UHGV virus genome: UHGV-0143643
Strand: one strand, 5' to 3'
Origin: a virus
DNA length: 21,353 bases
The notes under the pieces are model-generated. The model was not told where the DNA came from, ran no database searches, and saw only the letters and a list, made by a program, of their open reading frames with translations. This document shows positions 50 through 14,121 of this stretch, piece after piece. Made by a program: the position numbers and the translations under genes. How positions within the stretch are numbered: the first letter of the stretch is position 1; every line of letters begins with the position of its first letter.

Positions 50-829
50 ATGAAGATAATCTGCAGATTATTATTGGCGATGGCATGTTTGTGTCTGGCA
101 AACATATCCTGGGCTACTGTTTGTGCAAATAGTACTGGCGTAGCAGAAGATGAACACTATGATCTCTCAAATGTCTTTAATAGCACCAATAACCAGCCAG
201 GGCAGATTGTTGTTTTACCGGAAAAATCCGGCTGGGTAGGTGTGTCAGCAATTTGTCCACCCGGCACGCTGGTGAATTATACATACCGTAGTTATGTCAC
301 CAACTTTATTGTTCAGGAAACTATCGATAATTATAAATATATGCAATTAAATGATTATCTATTGGGTGCGATGAGTCTGGTTGATAGCGTGATGGATATT
401 CAATTTCCCCCGCAAAATTATATTCGTATGGGAACAGATCCTAACGTTTCGCAAAACCTTCCGTTCGGGGTGATGGATTCTCGTTTGATATTTCGTTTAA
501 AGGTTATTCGGCCCTTTATTAACATGGTGGAGATCCCCAGACAGGTGATGTTTACCGTGTATGTGACATCAACGCCTTACGATCCGTTGGTTACACCTGT
601 TTATACCATTAGTTTTGGTGGCCGGGTTGAAGTACCGCAAAACTGCGAATTAAATGCCGGGCAGATTGTTGAATTTGATTTTGGTGATATCGGCGCATCG
701 TTATTTAGTGCGGCAGGTCCGGGTAATCGACCTGCTGGTGTCAATACGACTCAACGTCGCTGGATTGACTTGAACACCCGCAGCAACATGCTGCAAAGTG
801 AAACCATGCGCCTTACGCACATTTCGTAA
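50..829 (+). CDS. sfmH: Fimbrial adhesin SfmH-like, N-terminal (signal peptide + lectin domain) portion. The frame looks authentic only to about 742; the tail to the stop at 829 is read-through into phage immunity-region DNA.
   Basis: Signal peptide MKIICRLLLAMACLCLANISWA; FimH-like layout (mature start TVCANSTG, VPQNCELNAGQIVEFDFGDIG resembling FimH GGCDVSARDVTVTLPDYPG). The C-terminus ...TMRLTHIS lacks the usual fimbrial terminal beta-strand, so it is truncated. Confidence 0.7.
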   Translation: MKIICRLLLAMACLCLANISWATVCANSTGVAEDEHYDLSNVFNSTNNQPGQIVVLPEKSGWVGVSAICPPGTLVNYTYRSYVTNFIVQETIDNYKYMQLNDYLLGAMSLVDSVMDIQFPPQNYIRMGTDPNVSQNLPFGVMDSRLIFRLKVIRPFINMVEIPRQVMFTVYVTSTPYDPLVTPVYTISFGGRVEVPQNCELNAGQIVEFDFGDIGASLFSAAGPGNRPAGVNTTQRRWIDLNTRSNMLQSETMRLTHIS

Positions 830-841
830 TGGTGATTGCAT
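743..841 (-). CDS. Cro-like XRE-family HTH protein, 5' portion (first 33 codons) separated from its 3' portion by the inversion junction; the uninterrupted minus-strand ORF runs 704..841
   Basis: Minus-strand ATG at 841-839 preceded by GGAGGG; translation MQSPLRNVRKAHGFTLQHVAAGVQVNPATLSRI is a textbook HTH N-terminus. After about 743 the frame continues into antisense sfmH sequence (DTSRSITRTCRTK, stop). Confidence 0.55.
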
Positions 842-855
842 ATGCCCTCCAAATA

Positions 856-932
856 TTGCGCGTTATGCATGTTATTTCACGCAATTATTTTGCGCAAGTT
901 GATTTGCTTATCACGCAATAAAGAAATGTAAT
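856..932. promoter_or_regulatory. Immunity-region operator/promoter cluster (O_R-like): divergent promoters for the cI-like gene (plus) and cro-like gene (minus) with repeated CGCAA/TTGCG half-sites
   Basis: Half-sites TTGCG 856-860, CGCAA 880-884, TTGCG 890-894, CGCAA 914-918 (perfect dyad CGCAA-N5-TTGCG at 880-894). Plus strand TTGCTT(904-909)-N17-TGTAAT(927-932) ends about 7 nt before the cI ATG (leaderless-type). Minus strand TTGCGC-N17-TAACAT lies upstream of the cro ATG. Confidence 0.5.
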
Positions 933-938
933 AAACGC

Positions 939-1631
939 ATGAACATAGGAAACCGAGTCAGACAACTTCGCCAAGCGAAGAACATGAAAATCGCCGATCT
1001 CGCTGAAGCAATAGGAGTAGATGCGGCGAACATCTCGCGCTTAGAAACGGGTAAGCAAAAACAATTTACCGAACAAACACTGAGTAATATTGCCAAGAGC
1101 TTAGGTGTTGATATTGCTGATCTCTTTACCTCTGCCCACAAAAGTAATACTGTATATAAAAACAGTAATAATGAGGATGTTGCGCAGGTGAAGGATGTGT
1201 TCCGTATTGAAATGCTGGATATCAGTGCCAGTGCGGGAAATGGCCTTATCCAGGGCGGTGATGTCATTGATGTGATTCATGCCATTGAATACAGAACTGA
1301 TAATGCTGTATCGATGTTTGGTGGACGACCAGCAAATCACATTAAAGTTATCAACGTTCGTGGGGACAGTATGTGTCCAACCATTGAGCCAGGAGATCTC
1401 ATCTTCGTTGATGTCAGCATCAATCAGTTTGATGGTGATGGTATATATGTCTTTGGTTTTGATGACAAAATATACGTTAAAAGACTTCAAATGATTCCTG
1501 ACAAACTGCTGGTGATTTCTGATAACCAGATTTACCGTGAATGGGGAATTACTAGCGAAAACGAACACCGATTCATGGTCTTTGGAAAGGTCTTAATCAG
1601 TCAGTCGCAAACCCTTAAGAGACATAATTAA
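939..1631 (+). CDS. Phage repressor, cI-like (N-terminal XRE HTH + C-terminal S24 LexA-like autopeptidase)
   Basis: HTH motif LRQAKNMKIADLAEAIGVDAANISRLETGK; S24 catalytic Ser in VRGDSMCPTI and Lys in YVKRL; sits at a divergent operator region. Confidence 0.9.
   Translation: MNIGNRVRQLRQAKNMKIADLAEAIGVDAANISRLETGKQKQFTEQTLSNIAKSLGVDIADLFTSAHKSNTVYKNSNNEDVAQVKDVFRIEMLDISASAGNGLIQGGDVIDVIHAIEYRTDNAVSMFGGRPANHIKVINVRGDSMCPTIEPGDLIFVDVSINQFDGDGIYVFGFDDKIYVKRLQMIPDKLLVISDNQIYREWGITSENEHRFMVFGKVLISQSQTLKRHN
1148..1167. promoter_or_regulatory. Near-consensus LexA (SOS) box TACTGTATATAAAAACAGTA, located inside the cI-like coding sequence
   Basis: Matches CTGT-N8-ACAG with TA flanks and an all-A/T core; palindromic ends ACTGT/ACAGT. 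Confidence 0.45.
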
Positions 1632-1650
1632 CCTCAATATCCCATCCATC

Positions 1651-1672
1651 GGCCACCGAAAGGTGGCTTTTT
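1651..1672 (+). terminator. Rho-independent terminator downstream of the cI-like gene
   Basis: GCCACC-GAAA-GGTGGC hairpin followed by TTTTT, 20 nt after the stop codon. Confidence 0.7.
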
Positions 1673-1685
1673 ACTACCTATAAAT

Positions 1686-1722
1686 TTGCATACCTCGCAA
1701 ATATCACTTACATATCTCGCAA
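1686..1722 (+). promoter_or_regulatory. pL-like early-left promoter with O_L-like operator half-sites
   Basis: TTGCAT(1686-1691)-N17-TACATA(1709-1714); CGCAA half-sites at 1696-1700 and 1718-1722 of the same type as next to the repressor start. Confidence 0.45.
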
Positions 1723-1886
1723 TTTAATTTTATCTTTTGTTCCAGACCAACTACAGGATTACAACAAAATCTGGTTGCAACACGGTGCATGTGTCGTAAG
1801 CAGTCAGTAAATGTCAAAAACGAACAGGCAGGACGCCCACGAAGTAGCCGCCTGGGGCATATGAAGTCCAGGATGATTCGTTAGCA

Positions 1887-1911
1887 ACAAAAAAGCGCCC
1901 TACAGGACGCT
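1887..1911 (-). terminator. Rho-independent terminator for the minus-strand gene 1951..2442
   Basis: On the minus strand GCGTCC-TGTA-GGGCGC hairpin followed by TTTTTT, about 40 nt downstream of the stop. Confidence 0.6.
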
Positions 1912-1950
1912 TAGCTCTTTAGCAATCTGGATATCCACAACAGTAGTAAT

Positions 1951-2442
1951 CTACAGATTGCCGTTAAGTTTTCTGGACAACTCCTCAATGGATGGAGGCG
2001 ATACGTAATCCGGATTTTTATTCATCAGAAACTTATTTTCACAGTGGAGGCACCTGCTTTTATGAAAAAGCTCATCTTCGCTAACCGGGAATGGTTGAAG
2101 TATCGATACTATCTTTTGTCCAAAACATTTTGGGCAAAGATGCATGGTTATGCTGCCACCGTTCACGATTACCTCCTTCGAGTATACAAAAGTACCCGAC
2201 TCAAGTTGGTTAAGGATATAGCCTTCCGTCTGAGCCTCAAAGTTTTCGAATTCTGCAATTTTAGCTTTGAGAGAAGCATTTATTTCTTGATAAGAGCCCA
2301 CCAGTTCAACGAGAGACACGCATTCGCGCTGAATAGACGCAAGCTTTGAGTTCAGCTCACCAATAGCCGCATTTACTTCAGCTTGAGTTTTTGCCTCGTT
2401 CATTAGTTTTGCAATCTGGGCTGTTTCACGAATAGCCGTCAT
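1951..2442 (-). CDS. Hypothetical moron protein: N-terminal coiled-coil plus C-terminal MqsA/YgiT-like zinc ribbon (CPKC ... CLHCENKFLMNK); convergent with the repressor gene. Alternative GTG start at 2466.
   Basis: The long ORF 1951..2730 has an Arg/Pro-rich low-complexity N-terminal extension that reads antisense through GC-rich structured DNA, so the start is placed at ATG 2442 (MTAIRET...). Heptad-like N-terminal half; C-terminal CxxC-N24-CxHCE motif resembles the MqsA N-terminal zinc domain (CPVC ... CVHCEESIMNK). Own terminator present. Confidence 0.75.
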   Translation of the reverse strand: MTAIRETAQIAKLMNEAKTQAEVNAAIGELNSKLASIQRECVSLVELVGSYQEINASLKAKIAEFENFEAQTEGYILNQLESGTFVYSKEVIVNGGSITMHLCPKCFGQKIVSILQPFPVSEDELFHKSRCLHCENKFLMNKNPDYVSPPSIEELSRKLNGNL

Positions 2443-2480
2443 TGCTGCCGTTAATTCAGCGATCACATTGAATACTCTTA

Positions 2481-2528
2481 TTGTTGTTGGGGATATCCAG
2501 ATTAACCGAATCCTTGTTGTTGGGGAAT
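2481..2528. repeat. Two direct copies of TTGTTGTTGGGGA (2481-2493 and 2516-2528; 35-bp period) immediately upstream of the minus-strand gene start
   Basis: Exact 13-bp direct repeat seen in the sequence; position suits a regulatory binding site. Confidence 0.5.
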
Positions 2529-2680
2529 AACCAGGTCCACCTCGCCTGATGTGGCTAAAAGCAGGCACATAACAGCTAAGTATTTTCAACCAGAGAGAAT
2601 CCTTAGCGTTGTGGTGAATGCGGCTCAGCGCACGCGGGTTAAGGTTGAGGCTGACAGTCGACCTTCTGTGGATACCCCCC

Positions 2681-2726
2681 CGCCTGGTGTGCAACCTTCG
2701 CCAGGCACCGGGAGGCACCCGGCACC
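2681..2726 (+). promoter_or_regulatory. GC-rich structured leader element (two stem-loops, triple GGCACC repeat) upstream of the terminator in the early-left transcript
   Basis: Hairpin GCCTGG(2682-2687)/CCAGGC(2701-2706); hairpin CCGGG(2708-2712)/CCCGG(2718-2722); GGCACC at 2704, 2714 and 2721. Confidence 0.3.
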
Positions 2727-2753
2727 ACAACTTTATGCTGTGTGTAGTCCTGG

Positions 2754-2800
2754 CGGTACCAGTTTGTACCCTTGCTTCCGGCTGGTACCGTCCTTTTTTG
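2754..2800 (+). terminator. Strong rho-independent terminator in the early-left leader, upstream of the YfdP-like gene
   Basis: CGGTACCAG(2754-2762) pairs with CTGGTACCG(2782-2790), followed by TCCTTTTTTG; three GGTACC-type palindromes allow alternative pairings. Confidence 0.6.
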
Positions 2801-2936
2801 CAAAACAGAGAAGAGCATCACCGGACGACGGGCTCATAACCCAATCCATCCGGGCGGCTGCCACCGCAGGTGTTCTTCTCTGTTTTGTGGAGAAACCAAC
2901 CGACCTTGCAGGGTCGATATGATGAGGAGCAGCAAA

Positions 2937-3299
2937 ATGGCTAGCGAACGCAGTACTGATGTGCAGGCATTTATCGGGGAGCTGGACGGCGGCGTATTTG
3001 AAACCAAAATCGGCGCAGTTCTCAGTGAGGTCGCTTCCGGTGTGATGAACACGAAAACCAAAGGGAAGGTCTCACTCAATCTGGAAATCGAACCGTTTGA
3101 TGAGAACCGTGTGAAAATCAAACACAAACTCTCATATGTTCGCCCAACTAACCGCGGGAAAATTTCCGAAGAAGACACCACCGAAACGCCGATGTATGTC
3201 AATCGCGGTGGTCGCCTGACTATTCTGCAGGAAGACCAGGGACAATTACTGACTCTTGCCGGTGAACCTGACGGAAAACTCCGCGCAGCAGGTCATTAA
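2937..3299 (+). CDS. Phage early protein, YfdP-like (120 aa)
   Basis: ATG 2937 preceded by GAGGAG; the longer ORF from 2772 is an upstream extension through the terminator. Size and order match the CPS-53 yfdP-yfdT block as recalled. Confidence 0.75.
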   Translation: MASERSTDVQAFIGELDGGVFETKIGAVLSEVASGVMNTKTKGKVSLNLEIEPFDENRVKIKHKLSYVRPTNRGKISEEDTTETPMYVNRGGRLTILQEDQGQLLTLAGEPDGKLRAAGH

Positions 3300-8396: not shown

Positions 8397-8711
8397 TCAT
8401 TGATAATCGACGCGTAAATACCCCAGCGCGCTAAACGGCGCTTCGGTCGGTTTTTGACCGGTAATACTGATAGGCCAGGCGCGAAGTGTGACATTGGCTG
8501 CCGCAGCTGCATCCAGACGGAAAGGAATAACGCTATTGAGATCGTTAGGCGTGATCGGCGTATCGTTCTGATCGGCGACAATAAAACCTAAATCCTGATT
8601 GTCCGACACCATCGCCTGACCAGAAACGGCACTGGCTTCCAGACGCATTGTTAAATAAGCCTGCGCAGCAACATTCGTACATTTGACCGCAATGCTCTTG
8701 GTTTGCGGCAT
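8397..8711 (-). CDS. sfmH: Fimbrial adhesin SfmH-like, C-terminal pilin-domain portion, detached from the 5' portion at 50..742
   Basis: KSIAVKCTNVAAQAYL resembles FimH LTVYCAKSQNLGYYL; ends with the fimbrial-type terminal strand ...GYLRVDYQ; sits directly upstream of sfmF as in the sfm operon. Confidence 0.75.
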   Translation of the reverse strand: MPQTKSIAVKCTNVAAQAYLTMRLEASAVSGQAMVSDNQDLGFIVADQNDTPITPNDLNSVIPFRLDAAAAANVTLRAWPISITGQKPTEAPFSALGYLRVDYQ

Positions 8712-10705: not shown

Positions 10706-11194
10706 ATGAGTCTTTTGAATGACGTTCAGAAATTCATTGAAGCCCATCCGGGGTGTACTTCCGGAGACATTGCGGATGCTTTTGCAGGTTACTCACGACA
10801 GCGCGTTCTGCAGTCAGCAAGCAAGTTACGTCAGAGTGGGCGTGTGGCTCACCGTTGTGAAGGGGATACACGCAGACATTTCCCGCGGCTGACTGAGATA
10901 CCGCAGGAGCCGGAACCGCAACCAGTTCGTGAATCCAGACCTGTGCGCAATTTCTATGTCGGCACTAACGATCCCCGGGTGATTTTGTGCCTGACCCGCC
11001 AGGCGGAAGAACTGGAGTCCAGGGGCTTATACCGTCGTGCTGCAACGGTGTGGATGGCGGCATTCCGTGAAAGCCACTCCCAGCAAGAGCGAAACAATTT
11101 TCTTGCGCGTCGTGAGCGGTGTTTACGGAAAAGCAGCAAGCGCGCTGTATCGGGTGAAGAGTGGTATCTGTCAGGGAATTACGTGGGGGCTTAA
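10706..11194 (+). CDS. Transcriptional regulator with a PerC-like C-terminal motif (162 aa)
   Basis: AEELESRGLYRRAATVWMAAFRESHSQQERNNFLARRERCL resembles the PerC/Pch family signature as recalled; N-terminal half is wHTH-like. Confidence 0.65.
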   Translation: MSLLNDVQKFIEAHPGCTSGDIADAFAGYSRQRVLQSASKLRQSGRVAHRCEGDTRRHFPRLTEIPQEPEPQPVRESRPVRNFYVGTNDPRVILCLTRQAEELESRGLYRRAATVWMAAFRESHSQQERNNFLARRERCLRKSSKRAVSGEEWYLSGNYVGA

Positions 11195-11520
11195 TGACGA
11201 CGTTAACTCAATGCCAGCAGCAGGTGCTGGATATGCTGATTTCTTACCAGAAAGAACGTGGCTTCCCGCCAACCAATCAGGAGGTGGCTACCATGCTGGG
11301 ATACCGTTCAGTGAATGCAGCGGTGGAGCATCTTCGCGCACTGGAGAAAAAAGGCGTCATCACGATAAAGCGTGGCGTGGCCCGGGGCATCACGCTTCAT
11401 ACCGCGGTGAAGGACGACGACAGCGAGGTGGCCGGGATTATCCGCGCACTGCTTGCTGGTGAGGAAAACGCCAGGCTGCGTGCAGCCCACTGGTTACATG
11501 AGAGGGGGCTGAAAGTATGA
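11194..11520 (+). CDS. LexA N-terminal DNA-binding-domain homologue lacking the S24 peptidase domain (108 aa)
   Basis: Aligns by eye with the LexA DBD: LTQCQQQVLDML...GFPPTNQEVATMLGYRSVNAAVEHLRALEKKGVI against LexA LTARQQEVFDLI...[34 protein letters not shown]. TAATG coupling to the upstream gene. Confidence 0.8.
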   Translation: MTTLTQCQQQVLDMLISYQKERGFPPTNQEVATMLGYRSVNAAVEHLRALEKKGVITIKRGVARGITLHTAVKDDDSEVAGIIRALLAGEENARLRAAHWLHERGLKV

Positions 11521-12724: not shown

Positions 12725-13720
12725 GTGACCGTGAGAGCACTACTGACCCCTGAAATTGCCCCGCGTATGGGGATCGTATTGTTCAGGCCCGGTTCAGAGC
12801 TGATGCCCCTGTTTATGCAGGGGCGTGTACTGCTGGAGCCTGAGCCGGAGCATTATTCATCTTTCGCCAGTGGTGCCGTTCCCGCGGCATCACAACCGCT
12901 GGCGGATGATCCTGCCGTTCGGGCCGTGTTCCGTAATGAGGCAGTGATTCGTCGTGCTGGTGGGGTGGAATGTCTTGAAAGCTGGTTACTTCGTGAAAAA
13001 GGCTGCCAGTGGCCTCATTCCGACTGGCACAGCGAGAACATGACCACAATGCGACACGCGCCGGGCGCAATCCGTCTGTGCTGGCACTGCGATAATCAGT
13101 TACGTGATCAGTTCACGGAGCGGCTGGAATCAATGGCAACGGATAACTGTGCCCATTGGGTGTTGTCTGTAGTCCGTCGGGATCTCGATTTTAATGATAA
13201 CCATGCCGTGACAATGCCGGAACTGTGCTGGTGGCTGGTTCGTAATGACCTGGCGGATGCCTTACCGGAAAGCGCAGCCCGTAAGGCACTGAGATTACCG
13301 AAGTCTGTTTTGCCGTCTGTCACCCGGGAAAGTGACCTTGTGCCTTCGGTTCCTGCCACCAGCATTATCCAGGATAAAGCGAAAAAGGTGCTGGCGCTGA
13401 AAGTGGATCCGGAGTCGCCGGAGTCTTTTATGTTACGCCCCAAACGTCGTCGCTGGGTTAATGAACAGTACACGCGCTGGGTTAAGACGCAGCCGTGTGC
13501 ATGTTGTGGAAAGCCAGCTGATGATCCGCATCATCTGATAGGCCATGGTCAGGGTGGAATGGGTACAAAAGCGCATGACCTTTTTGTGCTGCCTTTGTGC
13601 AGAAAACACCACGACGAACTGCATGCGGATACCGTGGCATTTGAAGAGAAGTATGGCTCCCAGCTGGAGCTGATATTTCGTTTTATCGATCGCGCACTGG
13701 CGATTGGTGTGCTGGCCTAA
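12725..13720 (+). CDS. DUF968-type phage protein with a C-terminal HNH-like Cys/His motif (YdfU-like); GTG start
   Basis: C-terminal [43 protein letters not shown]; typical nin-region gene. Confidence 0.8.
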
Positions 13721-13737
13721 TTTTGTGGAGAAAGTTA

Positions 13738-14121
13738 ATGCGTGATATTCAGATGGTTCTTGAACGTTGGGGAGCGTGGGCGGCTAATAATCATGAAGAT
13801 GTGACCTGGTCGTCCATTGCCGCCGGTTTTAAGGGATTAATTCCTTCAAAAGTAAAATCTCGCCCGCAATGTTGTGACGATGACGCGATGATCATTTGCG
13901 GGTGCATGGCCCGTCTGAAAAAGAACAACAGCGATTTGCACGATTTATTAGTAGATTATTATGTAGTCGGTATGACATTCATGTCACTGGCAGGTAAGCA
14001 TTGCTGCTCTGATGGTTATATCGGGAAAAGGTTACAGAAGGCTGAGGGCATAATTGAAGGGATGTTAATGGCATTAGATATCCGGTTAGAGATGGATATC
14101 GTTGTTAATAACTCTAATTAA
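13738..14121 (+). CDS. quuD: Late-gene antiterminator Q (phage 82 / DLP12 QuuD type, 127 aa)
   Basis: [36 protein letters not shown]... recognised as QuuD-like; GGAGA RBS 6 nt upstream of ATG 13738 (the ORF track starts at TTG 13723). Confidence 0.9.

Follow-up and report, generated by a model that had tools for sequence, protein, structure and literature searches.

In-frame, N-terminally truncated proteins that are made from an internal promoter and start of their own, that lack the DNA-binding part and that inhibit the full-length protein through mixed oligomers are exemplified by the Tnp/Inh pair of IS50/Tn5 and by the nested isoforms of the repressor gene c of phiC31. These are not lambdoid repressor or SOS switches, and their internal promoters are not built around a consensus LexA box. 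Among the lambdoid repressors, De Anda, Poteete and Sauer reportedly found in 1983 that the over-produced C-terminal domain of P22 c2 or lambda cI forms mixed oligomers with the intact repressor and induces the prophage. This provides a mechanistic precedent for a dominant-negative C-terminal fragment, but the fragments concerned were engineered or arose from cleavage, and we know of no natural, separately expressed C-terminal fragment in P22 or lambda. In a further group of systems, namely those of coliphage 186 (Tum), the Gifsy prophages (GfoA/GfhA/GftA) and N15 (AntC), the repressors are said not to be RecA-cleavable, and the SOS signal is relayed via LexA to a phage-encoded factor. According to PMC3121763, as summarised in PMC7067206, these factors inactivate the maintenance repressor without cleaving it. 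Phage 434 offers yet another arrangement in the form of Hex, an immunity-region product that blocks RecA-stimulated repressor cleavage (PMC3564112). Here we describe a LexA operator (SOS box) situated inside the cI-type prophage repressor gene of the virus genome UHGV-0143643, together with a nested reading frame that it may control, and compare the two with these systems; "the window" denotes the whole stretch of 21,353 nucleotides that was analysed. The features concerned are the following.

939 to 1631, plus strand: cI-type prophage repressor gene of 230 codons, with HTH_3 and Peptidase_S24 domains (Pfam) and conserved Ala99-Gly100, Ser144 and Lys181.
1125 to 1130, plus strand: putative -35 hexamer TTTACC (codons Phe63-Thr64), 17 nucleotides before TACTGT; weak, with variable wobble bases.
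1148 to 1167, no strand assigned: LexA operator TACTGTATATAAAAACAGTA, recognised by identity to the umuD and sbmC boxes, matrix score and conservation in the family, with TACTGT (1148-1153), its left arm, as putative -10 hexamer.
1173 to 1177, plus strand: Shine-Dalgarno-like GAGGA, 10 nucleotides before the GTG at 1188.
1186 to 1191, plus strand: second Shine-Dalgarno-like element, AGGTGA, 5 nucleotides before the GTG at 1197.
1188 to 1631, plus strand: proposed nested in-frame reading frame for an N-terminally truncated repressor, of 147 residues from the GTG at 1188 (codon 84) or 144 residues from the GTG at 1197 (codon 87).
1651 to 1676, plus strand: intrinsic terminator that closes the cI transcription unit and would also close any internal transcript.

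In E. coli, umuD and sbmC have SOS boxes with exactly the letters of the 20-mer at 1148-1167 (PMC3009722, table 4), boxes that rank among the nearest to consensus, and the same letters were re-read directly in the upstream region of K-12 umuD. Elsewhere in the literature the exact 20-mer occurs in a synthetic SOS-responsive promoter and in computational regulon inference. Scored with a symmetrised position weight matrix built from the 16 bona fide E. coli boxes of that table, the site reaches 27.2 bits (25.5 bits with a matrix built without umuD and sbmC), as against 14.0-27.0 bits for the 16 boxes themselves. It is the top-scoring position of the whole window, the runners-up being sites of 14.5 bits (13451-13470) and 14.0 bits (115-134), and no other LexA box of at least 15 bits is present in the window. 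None of 300 random windows generated with a first-order Markov model attained its score, the maximum being 18.4 bits. The bare core CTGT-N8-ACAG, with one match in the window against 0.22 expected, appears at least once in 22 of 100 shuffles and is not significant; the significance of the site thus derives from the improbability of the full 20-mer. The first-pass annotation of this DNA had claimed a LexA box at this position and had deemed a chance occurrence of the full pattern unlikely, and both claims hold up under this scoring, in which the site ranks first in the window and falls among the genuine SOS boxes.

The reading frame that contains the box spans an HTH_3 domain (residues 7-62) and a Peptidase_S24 domain (residues 104-218), and the box coincides with codons 70-77 (N-T-V-Y-K-N-S-N), that is, with the interdomain linker, as had been proposed from the sequence at the outset. 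The residues Ala99, Gly100, Ser144 and Lys181 are invariant in 12 homologues, as in autocleavable repressors that combine a helix-turn-helix (HTH) with an S24 domain. Retention of the S24 catalytic residues and of the Ala-Gly site sets the CI protein of the window apart from the repressors of the Tum, Gifsy and AntC type. The protein is 100% identical (98.8% at the DNA level) to CI of Shigella phage SfII, and the DNA identity of the gene is 93-94% to the repressors of mEp460 and of Stx2a and Stx2k phages, 77% to sb38 of ST64B and about 70% to those of Klebsiella phages. Of 5426 complete E. coli genomes, 1040 carry the gene at a nucleotide identity of at least 85%, with all but one record at 90% or above.

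To follow the box through the family, 253 loci were collected from annotated phages, one-genome-per-species bacterial contigs and IMG/VR, using peptide patterns that lie outside the box-coding segment, and these yielded 186 distinct repressor reading frames. An IMG/VR query with the family alignment returned only near-identical E. coli copies, and the diversity came from queries with distant members. All 166 distinct full-length reading frames of the family (46.8-100% amino acid identity) carry a LexA box in the same codons, 206-209 nucleotides from the conserved ATG of the family, with scores of 13.9-29.7 bits. The named hosts comprise Escherichia, Shigella, Salmonella, Citrobacter, Klebsiella, Cronobacter, Trabulsiella, Buttiauxella and Pseudescherichia, and many members are uncultured viral contigs for which no host is stated. 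The 20 outgroup repressors are either more distant or have another N-terminal domain (examples are HK022, BTP1, PHL101 and Turner), and none of them exceeds 6.5 bits. The family displays 47 distinct variants of the box, in which CTG (positions 3-5) and CAG (positions 16-18) are invariant, the centre varies freely although 85% of its bases are A or T, and the information in the flanks amounts to only about 0.2-0.8 bits.

Codon statistics over 25 clusters at 90% protein identity indicate that this conservation belongs to the DNA. The third-position entropy of codons 70-76 is 0.295 bits, the lowest of 225 windows along the gene, with the next non-overlapping window at 0.99 bits, and the amino acid entropy at codons 70, 73, 74 and 75 is 1.8-2.4 bits, which marks the linker as hypervariable in the protein. 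Thr71 is encoded by ACT and Ser76 by AGT in 25 of 25 clusters, as against 2-4 codons at other invariant Thr or Ser columns, and replacements of Asn by Thr, Pro, Ser or Tyr all retain an xxC codon before AGT. Free variation of the site at synonymous positions among homologues, which the first-pass annotation had named as an outcome that would speak against the box, is thus the reverse of what is seen. Given that wobble bases are fixed at the box within a hypervariable linker, the sequences argue firmly that selection acts on the DNA itself, following the pattern read by LexA, and that the box is almost certainly functional, most probably as an operator for host LexA. Of 15 box-bearing loci scanned for a second box of 12 bits or more with which it might form a loop, 14 have none in their flanks; the fifteenth has a 13.1-bit site 1.5 kb away.

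Several loci touch the margins of this family. Certain IMG/VR contigs (our loci L170-L173 and L161/L163/L168) share only the C-terminal domain with it, at 53-58% identity from residue 80-86 onwards, and possess unrelated N-terminal domains, which identifies the linker as a domain-swap boundary; they have neither the box nor the Shine-Dalgarno element and start described below. YmfK of the K-12 prophage e14 has an unrelated N-terminal part, is not a family member and lacks the box, so that this prophage offers no homologous site for LexA chromatin immunoprecipitation. To our knowledge, the K-12 prophages altogether lack immunity of the SfII type.

A second conserved signal follows the box, one that had escaped the first-pass annotation. 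In the aligned DNA of every clade, a purine-rich Shine-Dalgarno core (GGAGG, GAGGA, GGGGAGG, AAGGAG or GGAGA) stands 6-10 nucleotides before an in-frame start-type codon, which itself lies 20-32 nucleotides past the box and encodes the Val of the motif V-[FY]-R-[IV]-[ED]-x-L-D-V-S-A-S-A-G. Codon 87 is an NTG codon in 24 of 25 clusters (GTG in 20, ATG in 3, TTG in 1), as against 0-44% of clusters at 15 other Val-dominated columns. Upstream of codon 87, the duplex with the anti-Shine-Dalgarno sequence has a mean energy of -7.6 kcal/mol, whereas the average over the whole gene is -1.8 kcal/mol; codons 86-89 are the four strongest columns of the gene in this respect, and 20 of 25 clusters lie among the strongest 5% of background values. 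The residues encoded by the Shine-Dalgarno segment differ from clade to clade (E-G, K-G-R, Q-E-E, Q-E-A, G-D, K-E-S), and the GGAG/GAGG core occurs in three codon phases, which indicates that it is a signal at the nucleotide level. The GTG at codon 84 (1188-1190), preceded by GAGGA, is kept in all the listed sequences of the clade of the window, mEp460 and ST64B, and the window has in addition the GTG at codon 87 (1197-1199), preceded by AGGTGA. As a property of the sequences, the conserved internal translation start is solid.

The box and the start mostly co-occur. Box-less outgroup repressors are devoid of the pair of Shine-Dalgarno element and NTG codon, with the exceptions of our locus L016, which has a bare GTG with no Shine-Dalgarno element, and of the cI of Mannheimia phage PHL101 (L021; 39% identity), where an in-frame ATG follows GAAGAGGAAA at the equivalent of codon 87 in a gene that lacks a LexA box. 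Other repressor families may have internal starts ahead of the S24 domain without LexA control.

Upstream of the box, a -35-like hexamer (TTTACC, TTTACA, TTTACT, TTTTCA, TTCTCA, TTCTCT or TTTATT) occurs exactly 17 nucleotides before TACTGT in 25 of 25 clusters, matching TTGACA at 3-5 of 6 positions. The left arm TACTGT itself provides T, A and T at the three key positions of a -10 hexamer, and in 4 of 6 clusters with the hexamer TTCTCT, which has a 3/6 match, it is part of an extended -10 element, TG-n-TACTGT. The first T of the box, a wobble base, is kept in 41 of 47 variants, compared with 9 of 16 proven E. coli boxes, and A occupies the symmetrical last position in no more than 22 of the 47. 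The first-pass annotation had reported no convincing sigma-70 promoter on either strand around the box. A strict sigma-70 consensus scan of 700-3000 on both strands agrees with it in returning none, but the scan carries little weight, as it also missed the cI and cro promoters that must lie in that interval, and the interval does contain the weak, umuD-like sense candidate TTTACC-17-TACTGT. Of the several roles that had been suggested for the site, an internal sense transcript fits best, because a conserved Shine-Dalgarno element and start follow the box and its left arm lies 17 nucleotides after a -35-like hexamer.

The closest counterpart of this arrangement, and one that the first-pass annotation likewise had not noticed, is umuDC. 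K-12 umuD reads TTGATC-17 nt-TACTGTATATAAAAACAGTA-19 nt-ATG, and the layout in the window, TTTACC-17 nt-TACTGT, is the same; the 20-bp box is identical, and in both cases a Shine-Dalgarno element and start come about 20-30 nucleotides past it. The resemblance extends to the predicted product, which on the domain map keeps the S24 domain and loses the HTH, and which, like UmuD, would be an S24 protein with no DNA-binding domain and with a cleavage site near its N-terminus, the Ala-Gly site (1233-1238) being 13-16 residues from it. Over 83 residues the predicted product has 36% identity to UmuD, and its only sequence matches in the PDB are UmuD and UmuD'. The differences from umuDC are that the nested unit sits in frame within a repressor gene whereas umuD stands alone, that cI is followed by a terminator and operator-like repeats instead of umuC (the Y-family polymerase gene), and that the expected role lies in the lysis-lysogeny switch rather than in translesion synthesis.

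These features lead us to propose that the repressor gene contains a nested LexA-controlled gene for a truncated repressor that acts as a built-in antirepressor, a model to which, taken in full and judged from sequence comparison, we give an even chance. In the undamaged cell, LexA bound to the box would occlude the weak sense promoter formed by the -35 hexamer TTTACC (1125-1130), a 17-nucleotide spacer and the -10 hexamer TACTGT. Upon DNA damage, RecA-stimulated cleavage of LexA would free this promoter, a short leader with the Shine-Dalgarno element would be transcribed, and translation from the in-frame GTG at 1188 or 1197 would yield a protein of 144-147 residues comprising the S24/oligomerisation domain of the repressor with its Ala-Gly site but not its HTH. 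The short protein would then mix with full-length CI subunits and lower the occupancy of the operators, and such a LexA-timed antirepressor would reinforce the RecA-driven cleavage of CI. Among the conceivable functions of the short protein an antirepressor role appears to be the most likely, by analogy with the engineered C-terminal fragments of the P22 and lambda repressors and with IS50 Inh. Like the latter, the candidate has an internal in-frame start with a ribosome-binding site of its own. It differs from the Tum, Gifsy and AntC antirepressors, which are encoded by separate, unrelated small genes, in that the reading frame of CI itself would supply it, as residues 84/87-230.

A number of observations weigh against this model. 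The promoter candidate of the window matches the consensus at only 7 of 12 positions, its -35 hexamer is confounded by conserved Leu-Phe-Thr codons whose wobble positions are unconserved, and the strict sigma-70 scan, for the little that it is worth, was empty. The internal start could be used from the full-length mRNA, with no need of an internal promoter; the spacing between the Shine-Dalgarno element and the GTG is long (10 nucleotides) in the window's own clade; and the cluster of Klebsiella phage Kp4871-1 has GTA at codon 87, with the only nearby GTG badly spaced from the Shine-Dalgarno element. As judged by its retained Ala-Gly, Ser and Lys residues, CI should itself be RecA-cleavable, which makes an antirepressor look partly redundant, and the short protein might protect CI instead of antagonising it. 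Lastly, the prophage of the window is broken by an inversion (see below), and the nested module may as a result be idle here.

The protective function ranks second to the antirepressor. It posits the same nested LexA-controlled gene, whose short protein would serve as a substrate-like decoy for activated RecA, slowing the cleavage of CI and stabilising lysogeny, such that only prolonged damage would induce the prophage. The retention of the cleavage site close to the N-terminus of the product is consistent with a decoy, and 434 Hex gives it a precedent, being likewise a second protein in or overlapping the repressor transcription unit that modulates RecA-dependent induction, which it inhibits (PMC3564112). 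Hex, however, is specified by a reading frame that partly overlaps the repressor coding region and is made constitutively from the PRM mRNA rather than under LexA control, whereas a protector that appeared only after an operator identical to that of umuD had been vacated would come late. Moreover, the LexA-controlled phage factors known from the literature to date promote induction (PMC3121763; summarised in PMC7067206). We therefore regard the decoy as rather unlikely.

A role that dispenses with the internal promoter, and one that the first-pass annotation had put forward, is an elongation block, in which LexA bound at +209 would stop RNA polymerase coming from PRM or PRE and so trim the amount of repressor in undamaged cells, the internal start being used, if at all, from the full-length mRNA. 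The location of the site 209 nucleotides within the transcribed gene and the weakness of the candidate internal promoter are both in its favour. Such a roadblock would nonetheless lower the protein that maintains lysogeny while LexA is intact and raise it during the SOS response, and it leaves unexplained both the Shine-Dalgarno element and NTG codon 20-32 nucleotides downstream, which every clade keeps and which are missing where the box is missing, and the retention of the first T of the left arm (41/47 against 9/16) beyond what LexA needs. This proposal consequently retains some standing but appears unlikely, slightly more so than the decoy.

An antisense promoter at the box, from which SOS-induced transcripts would run against cI and through the operator region OR into cro, acting by interference and read-through, has in its favour that the palindrome offers TACTGT/TACAGT hexamers on the minus strand. 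The corresponding minus-strand -35 positions, however, fall in the hypervariable linker, match at 1-4 of 6 positions and are unconserved; the right arm reads CACTGT in about half of the variants; and no conserved antisense coding or Shine-Dalgarno signal is seen. This suggestion, also present in the first-pass annotation, thus fails for want of a conserved -35 hexamer and of a downstream coding signal, and is very unlikely.

The remaining partner that had been proposed for the box is encoded by the prophage. The reading frame 11194-11520 (plus strand) specifies a protein of 108 residues with a LexA DNA-binding domain and no protease domain (Pfam LexA_DNA_bind, E = 3e-19), flanked by a PerC-like gene and rusA. 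Its identity to residues 1-68 of E. coli LexA is 51%, with conservation of the segment RS-NAA-EHL-AL, which we take to align with the recognition helix of LexA, and judging from this similarity it probably recognises the same box. The protein is found in 60 phage records, including SfII, SfV, SfIV, cdtI and many Stx2a and Stx2c phages. Of these, SfV, SfIV and cdtI did not come up as carriers of this cI (no direct check was made), while ST64B, ENT47670, phiNP, Kp4871-1 and Flotzy keep the box and are absent from the 60 records, so that host LexA is the only partner common to all carriers of the box. The distribution of the phage protein means that it cannot be the reason for the conservation of the box; it is not a required partner, and that it rather than host LexA is the target's cognate protein is highly improbable. 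The protein could be a non-cleavable LexA mimic that re-represses SOS boxes during lytic growth.

That the box has no regulatory role, being a chance palindrome, a protein motif (Thr-Val-x3-Ser), an RNA hairpin or a recombination linker, is the least probable reading of all and can be set aside: Thr71, Val72 and Ser76 are indeed invariant or nearly so, and a 6-bp hairpin is possible in the RNA (-5.2 kcal/mol, z = -2.3), but chance does not produce the score in any of 300 random windows, a protein motif would not fix synonymous codons, the weak stem shows no covariation or compensatory changes and loses pairing 6/15 in 11 of 47 variants in a manner tolerated by LexA (CCAG), and a conserved recombination linker would not vary freely at its centre while CTG and CAG stay fixed. 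No Rfam family matches at the box.

Expression data bear on the internal transcript only at the level of the whole gene. In ST64B, the repressor-gene RNA rises from 251 to 394 transcripts per million (1.6-fold) on peroxide shock, a condition that induces this prophage (PMC7067206, table S5, gene-level values), which is a weak hint in the expected direction that could also be explained by prophage replication. Two known RNAs were considered and rejected as internal transcripts, namely STnc1310 of ST64B, which lies about 330 nucleotides downstream of the repressor gene, and svsR, a small RNA from the 3' end of cI of prophage NC-SV (PMC12803456), which derives from a different segment of cI and is unconnected with LexA. 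As a separate matter, the annotated putative antirepressor STMMW_20221 of ST64B in S. Typhimurium D23580, whose length of 1158 bp and position match sb41 of ST64B, is present at about 600-2800 transcripts per million in 16 of 17 conditions and at 84 under bile shock, while the repressor gene is at 65-520 (PMC7067206, table S5); so high a level is unexpected for an antirepressor in a stable lysogen.

In intact prophages of this type, a divergent cro-like gene lies upstream of cI. The prophage in the window is split: the cro-like gene breaks off at 741, after some 33 codons, its other half is at about 8712, and each half is fused to one half of a fimbrial adhesin-like gene, whose N-terminal part is at 50-741 and whose remainder is on the minus strand near 8397-8711; both junctions share TCA. 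By synteny the fimbrial gene is probably sfmH. The prophage is thus broken by an inversion of about 8 kb with junctions at about 741 and 8712, which separates cI and its promoter region from the early lytic operon (ymfL, replication genes and others, from 8866).

Downstream of cI come the terminator at 1651-1676, operator-like 15-mers and a minus-strand reading frame, with no polymerase gene. The 15-mer TTGCNTAYCNCGCAA (TTGC-N7-GCAA) is present in three copies (904-918, 1686-1700 and 1708-1722), one between cI and cro and two just past the cI terminator, and the three are probably the CI operators (OR and OL). An operator-like half-site at 1177-1189 (repeat D6), situated in the clade-variable part of the linker, was judged to be due to chance. 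Farther along, between the minus-strand reading frame after cI and the yfdP/yfdQ genes, a G+C-rich structured stretch at 2578-2801 (plus strand) matches the Rfam small RNA family STnc100 over the full model length with 40.3 bits (E = 1e-6), a score below the gathering score of 47; in related prophages a RefSeq "frameshifted hypothetical protein" covers part of it. As for the two runner-up LexA-like sites, both of which score like dinG, the weakest proven box, 13451-13470 (CGCTGGGTTAATGAACAGTA) lies near the end of the reading frame 12725-13720 and about 270 nucleotides before the next one (13723-14121), and 115-134 (TACTGTTTGTGCAAATAGTA) lies within the fimbrial gene. At the position that corresponds to the reading frame 12725-13720, a related intact prophage has a DUF968 gene.

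SOS boxes, LexA-controlled antirepressors and in-frame truncated inhibitors are each known, but their combination is not described: full-text literature searches for such a box, for an internal promoter or for a shortened isoform within a phage repressor gene came back empty. It is possible, though to our minds somewhat short of an even prospect, that a widespread class of enterobacterial repressors, with SfII, mEp460, ST64B and several Stx2a and Stx2k phages among its members, hides an SOS gene in which a LexA-controlled promoter in the linker drives a UmuD-like dominant-negative antirepressor. Since the box or the internal start can be removed by synonymous recoding that leaves the CI protein unchanged, the model is directly testable. 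For annotation, the locus suggests that an interdomain linker, however variable, can preserve regulatory sites and start codons. If the model is correct, it would represent a third way of coupling prophages to the SOS response, beside repressor cleavage and the separate LexA-controlled antirepressor, in which the repressor gene carries its own antagonist. It would also suggest a link by descent between HTH-S24 repressors and umuD-like SOS genes, for instance if an HTH gene had become fused to an SOS-regulated S24 gene. Contrary to the textbook view, RecA-stimulated self-cleavage of CI would then not be the whole trigger in one of the commonest immunity types of E. coli, Shigella and Salmonella, and induction would be gated by the strength of a LexA operator as well as by RecA-mediated cleavage of CI. 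This immunity type includes Shiga-toxin phages, the induction of which determines the release of toxin during antibiotic treatment.

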